Positions 43,595 to 48,164 of a stretch of DNA of 64,000 nucleotides are shown one piece after another. The position numbers and the translations under genes were made by a program. This DNA is from Escherichia phage FP43, in sequence record MN648445; one strand, written 5' to 3'. The notes under the pieces are model-generated. The model did not search any database, was not told where the DNA came from, and saw only the letters and a program-made list of their open reading frames with translations. Position 1 is the first letter of the stretch. Each line of letters begins with the position of its first letter.

Positions 43595-44343
43595 TTTTTA
43601 TGGTCCTTTTCTACTAATGTTAAAGCAATACCACGTTCAACAGGAATCATTTGCATAATAGAATCCAATGTGTATTGACTCTTTACTAGTGAATGGTTTA
43701 TCTGATAGAATGTAAAAATCTCATCAGGGTTAACTAACAATTTAAAAACCTCTAAGATATCAGTATATGTTTTAACATGGCGTTCACAACAACCTAATCT
43801 AAGGGTCAAATTAATAGGGTTCATAGAAGCAATAACCTTCTCGAGAGAGTCAATGTCTATTGCTTCTATTACTTGGATTTGGTTCTCTTCAGTCAAATCA
43901 TTCCATGGGTACCATTCATCATTATAATATATTTCTTTTATGTTTTCACTTATCATTAATGCTTTATTGTCATAAAACTTTTCAGGGAAAGAAAAACGTA
44001 TTTTTATACCAGCAACATCAAGTTCAGGTTCGACTAGTTCTTTTTGATATATCTCAAATGGTGCAGTTTTTTCTTTAGAGCATTTAGGGCAAGTGAAAAT
44101 AACGGGAACTTTTGTTTTGCCTATAGATCCTGCAAAAACTTGCAGGAATATAAATGGTTGCCATGTTTTAGGGTACTCGCCAAAATAATCATCAATCAGA
44201 TCGGCAATTATTTCTTTTTGTTCTTGCGGCGAACGATGTTCGATATCATTTCTAACTAGTAAAAAGTCTCTATAATCCGCCACAGTGAACGGCTTAAAAC
44301 GATGAACACCATCCGGTAATTTACAACGAATTATATTAGCCAT
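43591..44343 (-). CDS. 51: gp51 baseplate hub assembly catalyst
   Basis: 250 aa (T4 249); CPKC...C..C Cys cluster. Confidence 0.8.
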
Positions 44344-44360: not shown

Positions 44361-44368
44361 TATTTATA
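44361..44368 (-). promoter_or_regulatory. late promoter for gene 51
   Basis: Minus-strand TATAAATA inside the palindrome TATTTATAAATA. Confidence 0.55.
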
Positions 44369-44372
44369 AATA
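44365..44372 (+). promoter_or_regulatory. late promoter for gene 26
   Basis: Plus-strand TATAAATA inside the same palindrome, 19 nt upstream of the gene 26 ATG. Confidence 0.6.
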
Positions 44373-44390: not shown

Positions 44391-45017
44391 ATGTACAAAT
44401 ATACGTTTACCGTACGTTTAGGTGATAAAGAAGTGAATTGTAGGGCCTTTACTTTAAAAGAATATTTAGGGCTCATAGGTGCTCGGGCTACTGGTACTAT
44501 TGAATCAGCAGTGAACAATATTATCACTAATTGCTCTAACGCTAAAAACTTGACTAAACAAGAAGCCGAGTTATTGTTGGTAAATCTGTGGGCACATTCA
44601 TTAGGTGAAGTGAATCAAGAACACACCTGGAATTGTTCCTGTGGGCATTCATTTCAAGTCTATATGAATTTATTGCACACTCAATTAGATGAACAGGCCG
44701 ATCCCTGGTATTCGTTCAGCGGTATTAAAATTAAGTTCCGTCAACCTAAATTATTTGATGATAAAAATATCGCATTAATGATTGCTTCATGTATTGAGGC
44801 CGTTTTTGTCAATGGAGAGTCCATCCCTGTTGAAGATTTAACTGAAGCAGAAATAAACGACCTTTATGGCCTTATAACGGAAGATGACATGATCAATATT
44901 AAAAATCTTTTAGTATCACCATCAATTTATCTAGCAACCCCTATTAAATGTCCCAAATGTGGGGCGTCACACGTTCACACAATACGAGGCCTCAAAGAAT
45001 TCTTTGAGTTACTATAA
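44391..45017 (+). CDS. 26: gp26 baseplate hub subunit
   Basis: 208 aa as in T4; divergent from 51. Confidence 0.8.
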   Translation: MYKYTFTVRLGDKEVNCRAFTLKEYLGLIGARATGTIESAVNNIITNCSNAKNLTKQEAELLLVNLWAHSLGEVNQEHTWNCSCGHSFQVYMNLLHTQLDEQADPWYSFSGIKIKFRQPKLFDDKNIALMIASCIEAVFVNGESIPVEDLTEAEINDLYGLITEDDMINIKNLLVSPSIYLATPIKCPKCGASHVHTIRGLKEFFELL

Positions 45018-45415
45018 TGTCTAATATCAATAAACTTTATTCAGATATCGACCCAGAAATGCGTATGGATTGGAACAAGGACGTTGCTCGTTCTGTAGGA
45101 CTTCGTTCTATTAAAAATAGTCTTCTTGGCATAGTGACAACTAGAAAAGGCTCACGCCCCTTCGACCCTGAATTTGGATGCGATTTGGTTGATGAACTTT
45201 TCGAGAACATGACACCACTTACAGCCGATACTATTGAGCGTAATATCCAGGCAGCTGTTCGTAACTATGAGCCACGCATCGACAAACTTTCTGTAAGTGT
45301 AACGCCAGTATATGATGACTATACAGTTATAGTAGAGATTAGATTTTCAGTCGTAGACAACCCTGATGATATCGAACAAATCAAACTTCAGTTAGCATCA
45401 AGCAATAGAGTGTAA
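45017..45415 (+). CDS. 25: gp25 baseplate wedge subunit
   Basis: 132 aa; near-identical to T4 gp25 as recalled. Confidence 0.9.
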   Translation: MSNINKLYSDIDPEMRMDWNKDVARSVGLRSIKNSLLGIVTTRKGSRPFDPEFGCDLVDELFENMTPLTADTIERNIQAAVRNYEPRIDKLSVSVTPVYDDYTVIVEIRFSVVDNPDDIEQIKLQLASSNRV

Positions 45416-45440
45416 TGCTTCAAGGCAACCTATGTATAAT
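45416..45440 (+). promoter_or_regulatory. middle promoter upstream of uvsY
   Basis: TGCTTCA 45416-45422, 12-nt gap, TATAAT 45435-45440. Confidence 0.6.
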
Positions 45441-45495
45441 GGTTTTAGGTCCTTCCGATACAGCCGGGAGATTATTAGTTAAAAGAGAGAACATT

Positions 45496-45909
45496 ATGAA
45501 GCTGGAAGATTTACAGGAAGAGTTAGACGCAGACTTAGCTATTGATACGACAAAGTTGCAATATGAGACGGCGAATAATGTTAAGTTATACAGCAAATGG
45601 CTACGTAAGCACTCATTTATTCGTAAAGAAATGTTGCGTATAGAGACTCAGAAGAAAACTGCTCTAAAAGCAAGATTAGACTACTACTCGGGACGAGGTG
45701 ATGGTGATGAATTCAGTATGGACCGATACGAAAAATCTGAAATGAAAACTGTCCTGGCCGCAGATAAAGATGTGCTTAAAATAGAGACTACTTTACAATA
45801 CTGGGGAATTTTACTTGAGTTCTGTAGTGGTGCACTTGACGCAGTTAAGTCTCGTAGTTTTGCACTTAAACATATCCAGGATATGCGAGAATTTGAAGCG
45901 GGGCAATAA
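45496..45909 (+). CDS. uvsY: UvsY recombination mediator
   Basis: 137 aa from ATG 45496 (MKLEDLQEEL...); the track start 45415 is further upstream. Confidence 0.9.
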   Translation: MKLEDLQEELDADLAIDTTKLQYETANNVKLYSKWLRKHSFIRKEMLRIETQKKTALKARLDYYSGRGDGDEFSMDRYEKSEMKTVLAADKDVLKIETTLQYWGILLEFCSGALDAVKSRSFALKHIQDMREFEAGQ

Positions 45910-46133
45910 TGCGTTATTCAATTGAAGATGCCTTTAATAATGATGAAGAATTTGAAACAGAAATTAAATTCTTAATGGAAAAGTATCGTCTACGACGTCA
46001 GGATATTCGTATCCTGGCAGACCACCCTTGTGGTGAAGACGTCCTTTATATTAAAGGGAAGTTTGCTGGGTATATCGACGAGTATTTTTATACAAAAGAT
46101 ATGGGTATCGATATGTGCATGCGAGTGGTATAA
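45909..46133 (+). CDS. hypothetical protein (74 aa)
   Basis: ATG overlapping the uvsY stop. Confidence 0.45.
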   Translation: MRYSIEDAFNNDEEFETEIKFLMEKYRLRRQDIRILADHPCGEDVLYIKGKFAGYIDEYFYTKDMGIDMCMRVV

Positions 46134-46165
46134 ATAGATATGTAATTTCAACTTAGGAGGCAATC

Positions 46166-46333
46166 ATGTCAGATAAGATTTGTGTTGTCTGTAAAACTCC
46201 AATCGATTCTGCATTGGTTGTTGAAACAGACAAAGGTCCAGCACATCCTGGTCCTTGTTATAATTATGTCCAACAATTGCCGGTTTCAGAAAGTTCAGAA
46301 GAGCAATTGAACGAAACCCAACTTTTACTATAG
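46166..46333 (+). CDS. small Cys-containing protein (55 aa)
   Basis: Strong SD AGGAGG 8 nt upstream of ATG 46166; CVVC...C; the antisense track ORF 46164..46370 has no comparable signal. Confidence 0.4.
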   Translation: MSDKICVVCKTPIDSALVVETDKGPAHPGPCYNYVQQLPVSESSEEQLNETQLLL

Positions 46334-46359
46334 TGTTACCTTTTTTGCCTATGGTTTTT

Positions 46360-46388
46360 GGCCCTTCCAAAAAGGTCGGGCCTTTTTT
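46360..46388. terminator. convergent terminator between the small + ORF and uvsW.1
   Basis: GGCCC...GGGCC stem flanked by T-runs on both sides. Confidence 0.45.
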
Positions 46389-46390
46389 AA

Positions 46391-46624
46391 TTAGAAGTCT
46401 TCTTCCTCATCCTCATCATCGTCGCCTTCAAGTTCGGCACGCTTACCTGCTAAGGCATCCCTGACAGAAATATCATCTGTATCTTTTAATTCCGTTTCTT
46501 TTATACGTTTCTTATAATAAGCTTCCAATTCTTCAAGCCCTTCTAAGGTATGACAACTAGCAATTTTACCCATGAATTCGTCAATAGATGCTTCGTATAA
46601 AAATTGTTTAAATTCAAGTACCAT
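46391..46624 (-). CDS. uvsW.1: UvsW.1 small acidic protein
   Basis: 77 aa, acidic C-terminus; directly downstream of uvsW. Confidence 0.7.
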   Translation of the reverse strand: MVLEFKQFLYEASIDEFMGKIASCHTLEGLEELEAYYKKRIKETELKDTDDISVRDALAGKRAELEGDDDEDEEEDF

Positions 46625-46636
46625 TTTTATCTCCTA

Positions 46637-46650
46637 AGGGCCGAAGCCCT
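46637..46650 (-). terminator. hairpin between uvsW and uvsW.1
   Basis: AGGGC-CGAA-GCCCT; no U-tract; may be an RNA structure rather than a terminator. Confidence 0.3.
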
Positions 46651-48164
46651 TATAAATTAATTGTTTTCATTACATAGTTAAATTTCTCATCAGCGTAACG
46701 CTGGATACGATCAATACCGTGTTTTAACAAGTAATTAAGATGAGTATACTTCTTTTTAGTATTTAATGATTTAGGTTTTACACCTGCGTCATCGATGAGA
46801 TCCCAAACTGTAGCAACGGCTTTAGAACCATGCTTACGAAGCACACGACCTACTGTTTGAAGTACGATAATTTTTGATTTAACACCATGGGCAAAAATAA
46901 CATGATGAAGATTCTTGACTGAAATACCAGTAGAGAATACTCCATATGATGCGACAATAATAATGCCTTTACCATTTTCTGCCATGACTTTAAGCGCGTT
47001 ACGTGTTTCGGTATCAACTTCACCTGATACGTAATAAACTTTTTCGTATCCAAGCTCTTTAATAGCTTCAAATATTTCTTTACCATGTGTAACATGTTTA
47101 AACATTACAAAGGCGTTCTCGTCTTTCTTAGCCAATTTGACTGAAAGTTGAGCAATCCACTTTGTACGACGTTTTAGTCCGGTAATAATTTTAACTTCTT
47201 CTTGGTATGTTTTACCTTTTAATTTAACAGTGAATTCGTCCGGATAACGAAGGAAAATACTATTAATCTTAAGCTCAGTTACTTGACCGTCTTCCGTTAA
47301 TTTAGACGTGCTAACAGGACGGAAGATTTCGCCGAACATACCTACGTACTGCATTACATTGGCTTTTCCGTCTCTTAATGAGCCGGATAAACCGAATTTA
47401 AACATGCAATTATTTAATCCTGAGATGATTGAAGAAATACTTTTGCCTGTTGCTAAGTGGCATTCATCGTTCATCATCATACCGAACTGAGAGAACCATT
47501 CTTTAGGCTGCTTAACTACCGTTTGCCATGTGCCAACAATAATTAGAGCGTCGTTTTTAGATTTGTCAGCTTTATCAGCACCACCACCAATTTTCTTAAT
47601 CATCGAATGACTAAACAAGCGATAATCAACAAAATCATTAGCCATCTGGGTTGTCAATGCTGTTGTAGGGACGATAATGAGAATTTTACCTTCATAGTTC
47701 TCTAAATAATACCGAGCTAAAAGTGCTTGGATTAGTGATTTACCTGCTGATGTCGGAAGGTTTAAAATTCGACGACGATTAACTAGACCTTCATATACTG
47801 CATCTTTTTGATACCAATGTGGTTCGATTTTGGCGTTGCCTGAATAAATTTCTTGTTTAGAAAGCCATGCGTCAAAATCTTCCCTGGTAAGGTCTTCAGT
47901 CTCAAAGATTTTAGGGTCAATCCATACAGAATAACTCATATTGTTACAGAACTTTTTTATTTGTCCTACAAGTCCATACGGTAACAAACGATTGTAATCT
48001 AAAAGTCGAATTCTACCATCCCATTGCCCATAGCGATATTTTGGGTTAAATTTATACCCGTCAGCTTCAAAGCTAAAAAAGTCACGAAGTTCGTAAAACG
48101 TACTTTCGTCGCATTCAATGCGAACGTGACTAAAATCATGAAAATGTACTTTAATGTCAGTCAT
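46650..48164 (-). CDS. uvsW: UvsW DNA helicase
   Basis: 504 aa; SF2 helicase motifs (PTSAGKS, DECH). Confidence 0.9.
   Translation of the reverse strand: MTDIKVHFHDFSHVRIECDESTFYELRDFFSFEADGYKFNPKYRYGQWDGRIRLLDYNRLLPYGLVGQIKKFCNNMSYSVWIDPKIFETEDLTREDFDAWLSKQEIYSGNAKIEPHWYQKDAVYEGLVNRRRILNLPTSAGKSLIQALLARYYLENYEGKILIIVPTTALTTQMANDFVDYRLFSHSMIKKIGGGADKADKSKNDALIIVGTWQTVVKQPKEWFSQFGMMMNDECHLATGKSISSIISGLNNCMFKFGLSGSLRDGKANVMQYVGMFGEIFRPVSTSKLTEDGQVTELKINSIFLRYPDEFTVKLKGKTYQEEVKIITGLKRRTKWIAQLSVKLAKKDENAFVMFKHVTHGKEIFEAIKELGYEKVYYVSGEVDTETRNALKVMAENGKGIIIVASYGVFSTGISVKNLHHVIFAHGVKSKIIVLQTVGRVLRKHGSKAVATVWDLIDDAGVKPKSLNTKKKYTHLNYLLKHGIDRIQRYADEKFNYVMKTINL

Follow-up and report, generated by a model that had tools for sequence, protein, structure and literature searches.

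Sequence comparison identifies a 55-codon reading frame of Escherichia phage FP43 as the orthologue of T4 uvsY.-2, with a predicted zinc-finger product

Does the short reading frame between uvsY.-1 and uvsW.1 of Escherichia phage FP43 encode a protein, on which of the two strands does the coding sequence lie, and what may the product do? In the present study, these questions were addressed in a window of 64,000 nucleotides (record MN648445), which is the whole stretch of DNA that was analysed. The 1.3 kb around the frame has 99.9% identity to Escherichia phage p000v, a T4-like Mosigvirus. A sequence-only reading of this DNA had proposed a 55-aa plus-strand ORF from ATG 46166, and our reading of the sequence and the ORF listing both bear this out; the frame closes with TAG at 46331-46333 and its product is MSDKICVVCKTPIDSALVVETDKGPAHPGPCYNYVQQLPVSESSEEQLNETQLLL. 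The CxxC pair and the third Cys noticed at that time are C6/C9 and C31, and the product also has H27, a potential ligand which that reading did not mention. The description of the frame as unannotated did not hold. The same CDS is annotated in p000v (YP_010099994), T4 carries it as uvsY.-2 (T4p185, NP_049797, UniProt Q00778), a protein of 55 aa with 93% identity to the FP43 protein, and it has its own Pfam family, DUF2685 (PF10886). The product matched this family over model positions 1-55 of 55 with 109.4 bits, against a cut-off of 25, and an E-value of 1e-31, and the match to phrog_1043 also covered 1-55 of 55 (E 7.5e-30). The use of the protein as a tblastn query returned about 1250 phage records, and among the matches listed most lay under annotated CDSs; the hosts include Escherichia, Klebsiella, Shigella, Acinetobacter, Vibrio and Aeromonas. 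NCBIfam gave no match with the product, an Rfam scan over 45300-46800 gave none either, and the literature under other gene names and accessions yielded nothing past two T4 data papers (PMC9697503, PMC11879866). By sequence comparison, the FP43 ORF is the Mosigvirus orthologue of T4 uvsY.-2 and hence a gene already catalogued. To the best explanation overall, which covers this orthology, the expression of the gene, a two-module product and a proposed role (the last graded on its own below), we assign a probability of roughly 90%. The features are collected in Table 1.

Table 1. Coordinates of the features discussed in the text; positions refer to the window, except where another locus is named
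Feature	Coordinates	Strand	Details and basis
Probable MotA-dependent middle promoter of the uvsY/uvsY.-1/uvsY.-2 unit	45413..45440	+	Sequence
Candidate T4-type late promoter TATAAATA	46129..46136	+	Overlaps uvsY.-1 stop; ends 29 nt before uvsY.-2 ATG
Shine-Dalgarno AGGAGG	46155..46160	+	Sequence; 5-nt spacer (caatc) to ATG
Antisense ORF	46164-46370	-	68 aa, TTG start; ORF listing
uvsY.-2 CDS, DUF2685 family	46166..46333	+	55 aa and TAG; Pfam, phrog_1043, T4 synteny, dN/dS
Predicted zinc-finger core	46181..46258	+	Codons C6 46181-46183, C9 46190-46192, H27 46244-46246, C31 46256-46258
Acidic, probably disordered tail	46286..46330	+	Residues 41-55, SESSEEQLNETQLLL; conservation, pLDDT 45-71
Putative intrinsic terminator of the plus-strand transcript	46360..46388	+	Split GC stem 46360-46382, T6 46383-46388
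126-aa form, Proteus phage Pm5461 gp190	L049 1501-1881		Between uvsY and uvsW.1

The ORF listing holds an open frame on the opposite strand, which the earlier reading had described as lacking comparable signals; in agreement with this, it has a TTG start without a Shine-Dalgarno and no family match. The codon-substitution pattern in relatives was used to settle the strand. Orthologous ORFs were taken from 41 related loci (viral contigs), giving 36 distinct sequences with 48-100% identity to the FP43 protein. In the plus frame, pairs of sequences diverged on average by 0.25, 0.17 and 0.48 at codon positions 1, 2 and 3, pN/pS was 0.34 and the median dN/dS was 0.17, and internal stops were found in 0 of the 36 sequences. 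The frame of the antisense ORF gave a pN/pS of 1.9 and stops in 24 of the 36. All five frames other than the plus frame were interrupted in 24-36 of the 36 sequences; one further antisense frame had a low pN/pS (0.43), because third positions are shared (the usual mirror effect), but it was closed in 35 of the 36. The codon test is decisive, and the plus strand is the coding strand. That the minus-strand ORF is the real gene and the plus-strand ORF a by-product has practically no probability: it is the longer open frame here, but with the substitution pattern and interruptions just given it has no Pfam or PHROG match, lacks a conventional start signal and is annotated by neither the p000v nor the T4 record. 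The uvsY.-2 frame is well beyond chance: its Pfam and PHROG matches span the full length, it alone shows purifying selection, and GGAG is conserved upstream of it.

The gene order was compared across relatives. In FP43, uvsY.-2 is the last gene of the plus-strand run 26-25-uvsY-uvsY.-1-uvsY.-2, which is convergent on uvsW.1-uvsW, and the placement between uvsY.-1 and uvsW.1 given by the earlier reading is the slot that uvsY.-2 has in the T4 annotation. In 43 of 43 loci examined, the gene was found at the 3' end of the 26-25-uvsY run, between uvsY(.-1) and convergent uvsW(.1); tblastn detected uvsW.1 in 40 of these loci and uvsY.-1 in 12. Since uvsY.-2 is always present and uvsY.-1 is found in only 12 of the 43 loci, uvsY.-2 is the more stable member of the pair. 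Several loci (e.g. L010, L012, L016) have 500 to 700 nt between uvsY and uvsY.-2 with no match to the seven query genes. On the minus strand at 46391-48164, uvsW (504 aa) and uvsW.1 (77 aa, Pfam UvsW-1) each have an ORF of their own (cf. locus L002, 675-2441); the T4 RefSeq record has a single fused uvsW CDS of 587 aa, with a note on sequence discrepancies. The FP43 gene shares with T4 uvsY.-2 the length of 55 aa, the slot and orientation between uvsY.-1 and convergent uvsW(.1), the GGAG ribosome-binding site, the octamer TATAAATA about 30 nt upstream, and the downstream hairpin with a T-run. The two proteins differ by four substitutions only, V26A and I35V/K36Q/E37Q, the latter three in the linker after the helix. 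Overall, the architecture is alike, and we regard the two as one gene in sister genera.

Concerning expression, the T4 orthologue gives some guidance. In the supplement to PMC9697503, T4 uvsY.-2 (Q00778) is detected by mass spectrometry and classed as 'middle RNA / late protein', and uvsY and uvsY.-1 are in an RNA class other than that of uvsY.-2. All T4 data used here concern the 93%-identical orthologue, not FP43 itself. In the FP43 sequence, the signals upstream of the gene are in keeping with more than one route of transcription. The middle promoter probably consists of the MotA box taaTGCTTCA (45413-45422), a 12-nt spacer and TATAAT (45435-45440); for this assignment, the region was compared with the established T4 middle-promoter consensus and with the T4 oriF/PuvsY at the equivalent place. 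uvsY as usually annotated (45415-45909, 164 aa, as in p000v) has 27 N-terminal codons beyond T4 UvsY (137 aa), the PHROG match of the annotated protein begins at residue 28, and the extension holds the MotA box, the TATAAT and a hairpin-like site at 45452-45470. The true uvsY start is probably ATG 45496 (MKLEDLQ...), the extension being a middle promoter/oriF-like region (45413-45498).

The window has 20 copies of the candidate late promoter octamer TATAAATA, where 7.2 +/- 2.7 would be expected, and 11 of these 20 copies lie 17-30 nt ahead of an ORF start (ORFs of at least 50 aa); the 29-nt gap between the octamer and the start of uvsY.-2 is the same as that at uvsW. T4 and 12 of 39 distinct upstream regions have the octamer without a mismatch, and most of the others are one base off, AATAAATA. 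Furthermore, the motif ATAAATAGATATGTAA before uvsY.-2 is kept in relatives with uvsY.-1 present or absent. Because of this conservation even without uvsY.-1, uvsY.-2 probably has a late promoter of its own, which fits its separate RNA class in T4. Elsewhere in the window, two overlapping divergent copies of TATAAATA, at 44361-44368 on the minus strand and 44365-44372 on the plus strand, sit between two divergent genes, one at 44343 on the minus strand (by T4 synteny gene 51) and one at 44391 on the plus strand (gp26), and the site 44361-44372 looks like a compact back-to-back late promoter pair. With respect to translation, AGGAGG had been placed 8 nt before the ATG; the strong Shine-Dalgarno is present, but its spacer is 5 nt, which is still near-optimal. 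GGAG is found at about equal distance in most of the 41 related loci. The GGAG of the ribosome-binding site (46156-46159, alike in most relatives) is a target of the T4 RegB endoribonuclease, and, as pure speculation, RegB cleavage of early or middle read-through RNA at this place could contribute to the 'middle RNA / late protein' behaviour. In our proposal, uvsY.-2 would be transcribed by read-through from the MotA-type middle promoter before uvsY and, late, from its own octamer, both of which are probable, and it would be translated from its own AGGAGG.

The plus-strand transcript would end at a hairpin and U-tract downstream of the gene. The GC-rich hairpin with T-runs on both sides that had been reported from the sequence is found at 46360-46382: GGCCC-TT-CC-AAAAA-GG-TC-GGGCC folds at -13.2 kcal/mol, with TTTTT at 46355-46359 and TTTTTT at 46383-46388. 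The split stem recurs in relatives, with a compensatory swap of GGCCC/GGGCC to GCCCC/GGGGC and the T-run always downstream. A simple terminator scanner missed this hairpin owing to its 2x2 internal loop, and a perfect-stem finder likewise; the split-stem relatives were compared by eye. The hairpin had also been expected to terminate the convergent uvsW.1 transcript, and this part of the claim was rejected after both strands had been read and folded. The minus-strand RNA has A-runs on both sides of the stem (AAAAAAGGCCC...GGGCCAAAAA) and reads ...GGGCCAAAAACC, with A5 and no U-tract after the stem. Because the T-runs of the plus strand are A-runs on the minus strand, a canonical hairpin with a U-tract exists for the plus strand only. 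A bidirectional terminator needs an A-run upstream of the stem on the plus strand, and FP43 has TTTTT at that place. Among 19 distinct downstream regions where the simple stem finder scored a hairpin, 0 had an A-rich flank outside the stem, and the split-stem relatives which it missed all have T-rich upstream flanks (by eye). In a few distant relatives (L024, L030/L031, L041) the stems are symmetric and A...T-flanked, and these could work both ways. We infer from the sequence that the FP43 hairpin would be a one-way terminator for the plus strand. It has the GC-rich stem and following U-tract of canonical Rho-independent terminators and stands, like bidirectional types, between two convergent stop codons (57 nt apart), but it differs from the bidirectional terminators of convergent genes in having no upstream A-tract. 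In many relatives (L009-L033), the first 35 nt past the uvsY.-2 stop codon contain another small AT-rich hairpin ahead of the terminator, e.g. ATAGCCATTTTATGGTTAT or AACCAACTTGTTGGTT; FP43 46343-46356 holds a mere remnant of it (GCCTATGGT).

What kind of protein is made? A profile search over 1.84 billion representatives gave only 55 clusters, nearly all of them stand-alone proteins of 51-66 aa. In 54 aligned representatives, down to 32% identity, C6, C9, H27, G29, C31 and E42 are invariant, and K10, G24 and L53 are nearly so (L53 at least 90% conserved). The FP43 protein has all the marks of the family, namely C-x2-C...H-x-G-x-C, a C-terminal E-x-[QE]-L-L-x and a stand-alone length of about 55 aa, and its ligand pattern is C-x2-C-x17-H-x3-C (Cys2-His-Cys). 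The AlphaFold models (overall pLDDT 76 and 80, core 82-90) have two beta-hairpins, a helix at 30-37 and then a tail modelled with low confidence. With Foldseek against the PDB, the best matches were LIM half-domains (2dlo, probability 0.91-0.93, E 0.39-0.46, below significance), and 2dlo was superposed with an rmsd of 1.7 A over 29 columns; the next were eL24/Rlp24 and GATA fingers, all treble-clef and none significant (E at least 0.4). A non-significant Foldseek E-value is expected for a finger of about 35 residues. The weak Pfam matches among the 54 members were all to zinc-finger families and sub-threshold, including zf-FCS and zf-FLZ, and one of the 54 members matched Pfam LIM (E 0.026). 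A sequence search of solved structures gave a chance match only (E 0.11), and a fold search of the viral predicted-structure library returned solely uncharacterised members of the family itself.

The first finger of LIM domains, C-x2-C-x16-23-H-x2-C, belongs to this spacing class, and in the model the zinc knuckle is on a beta-hairpin and the last two ligands are at the start of a short helix, as in LIM. The differences are that uvsY.-2 has a single finger, whereas LIM is a tandem pair, and that the H-C spacing is 3 instead of 2. The protein resembles LIM in fold class and is not a member of the LIM family. Because the ligands are invariant and the model has the knuckle-plus-helix geometry, the N-terminal module is predicted to be a Cys2-His-Cys treble-clef zinc finger, and both the zinc binding and the fold rest on this prediction. 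In Bragavirus and a few relatives, the domain forms the C-terminal half of a 126-aa ORF (phrog_26998), as in Pm5461 gp190 (Table 1). The N-terminal 72 aa of the Pm5461 form have their own PHROG as the sole match and bear no relation to uvsY.-1. The fusion may not be obligate, and the uvsY.-2 part is possibly translated separately, because an internal AAGGA and ATG are retained just before it. This natural fusion was considered as a clue to function and dropped, as the N-terminal part had no informative match and the internal start is retained.

The second module is the C-terminal tail. The final eight residues conform across the family to L-x-E-[TVI]-[QE]-L-[LI]-[LMI]-COOH, which in FP43 is L-x-E-T-Q-L-L-L. 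With 8 acidic residues against 3 basic ones, the whole protein carries a net charge of about -5, and it has no basic patch. A position-specific matrix was made from the uvsY.-2 family tails and scored on the C-termini of all 409 T4 ORFs; uvsY.-2 obtained 24 bits and the next T4 ORF 6.

The importance of the gene has been examined in T4. In a dCas13d translational knock-down screen, T4 uvsY.-2 was classed as 'Semi-Fit', the three listed guides over its ribosome-binding site scoring about 2.1-2.3, while uvsY.-1, uvsY and uvsW were 'Not Fit' in the same screen (PMC11879866). A single-guide plaque assay validated the result for uvsY.-2, and trans-complementation restored plating efficiency and plaque size (PMC11879866). 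The phenotype was mild, with a pooled-screen KS p-value of 0.12, and the authors described uvsY.-2 as important for T4 infection and of unknown function (PMC11879866). The gene is expressed in T4 and matters for T4 fitness.

On this basis, we propose that the product would comprise two modules, an N-terminal zinc finger and a flexible acidic tail with a conserved hydrophobic C-terminus, and that it may serve as a small protein-protein adaptor or competitor which docks by the tail and possibly by the finger. LIM-like fingers are protein-binding modules. The adaptor role is suggested because the protein is acidic, its fold class is LIM-like and the extreme C-terminus is conserved; nucleic-acid binding is disfavoured because of the acidic character. 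We put the adaptor role forward as a possibility well short of even odds. The docking partner would more likely belong to the DNA metabolism or late development of the phage than to a strain-specific defence of the host, because the synteny is fixed across host genera and the phenotype was found in a laboratory host. In this tentative form, uvsY.-2 may have been overlooked as an accessory factor that acts as a zinc-finger adaptor in DNA replication, recombination or late gene expression of the T4 type, a suggestion we hold with the same reserve.

Among the alternatives, the most durable is that uvsY.-2 is directed at the host: with its acidic tail and finger bound to a bacterial target, it would block or take over a host protein or act against a defence. 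It shares small size, acidity and lack of enzymatic character with many T4 host-takeover proteins, its tail is unlike the C-terminus of any other T4 protein, and the CRISPRi-ART authors list it among the unknown 'Semi-Fit' genes that possibly point to defence inhibition (PMC11879866). However, its position in the core genome is fixed in phages of Escherichia, Klebsiella, Proteus, Acinetobacter, Aeromonas and Vibrio, which is easier to reconcile with a phage partner that is conserved, or a host partner that is highly so, than with a strain-specific defence. In addition, uvsY.-2 scored as fit in the screen, and anti-defence genes without relevance for the laboratory strain did not (PMC11879866), and the protein is made late according to the PMC9697503 supplement. 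We consider a host-directed role rather doubtful.

A different use of the finger is conceivable, in which it would bind RNA or DNA in the manner of eL24 or FCS-type fingers and uvsY.-2 would be a small translational or transcriptional regulator. The eL24/Rlp24 and GATA fingers among the fold matches, the weak Pfam matches to zf-FCS and zf-FLZ and the nearly invariant K10 by the CxxC knuckle speak for it, but all of these fold and Pfam matches are sub-threshold, acidic residues outnumber basic ones and there is no basic patch, so that we judge such a role unlikely. Still less credit is given to the idea that the tail is a peptide binding the gp45 sliding clamp, like those of gp33, gp43 and gp55, with uvsY.-2 riding on or competing for the clamp. 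The C-termini are superficially alike (uvsY.-2 NETQLLL; gp33 in the window NTLDFLL; T4 gp43 SLDFLFG; T4 gp55 SLDFLYEAND), and uvsY.-2 is expressed late and sits amid replication and recombination genes. The tails of gp33, gp43, gp55 and gp32, all of them DNA-metabolism or late-transcription proteins of the phage, have in common with it a short acidic-then-hydrophobic peptide at the extreme C-terminus. The motifs themselves differ, being L-x-E-T-Q-L-L-L in uvsY.-2, [ST]-L-D-F-L-[FLY] in the clamp binders and D-L-D-D-L-L-x-x-L in gp32. By the family tail matrix, gp33, gp43 and gp55 had negative scores and ranked 36, 135 and 296 of the 409 T4 ORFs, and neither the Phe nor the Leu-Asp of the LDFL core ever occurs in the family; clamp binding is accordingly very improbable. 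Mimicry of the acidic gp32 tail found no support either, gp32 having rank 22 of 409 with the same matrix.

Taken as a finding, uvsY.-2 is ordinary: T4 gene lists have included it for decades, Pfam gives it a family, and hundreds of genomes carry its annotation. An ORF track biased towards length had missed this 55-codon gene; the case illustrates that a short ORF with good signals can still be recovered and that a codon-substitution test settles the strand. For the biology of these phages, uvsY.-2 is a conserved T4 gene whose effect on fitness can be measured, and the invariant Cys2-His-Cys site and the conserved C-terminal peptide are two precise handles for mutagenesis and for hunting partners. 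If the proposal of an accessory factor is true, the L-x-E-T-Q-L-L-L peptide would dock onto a core phage protein, or a universally conserved host protein, and this would explain the fixed place of the gene by uvsY/uvsW across at least 6 host genera as well as the knock-down defect in T4.
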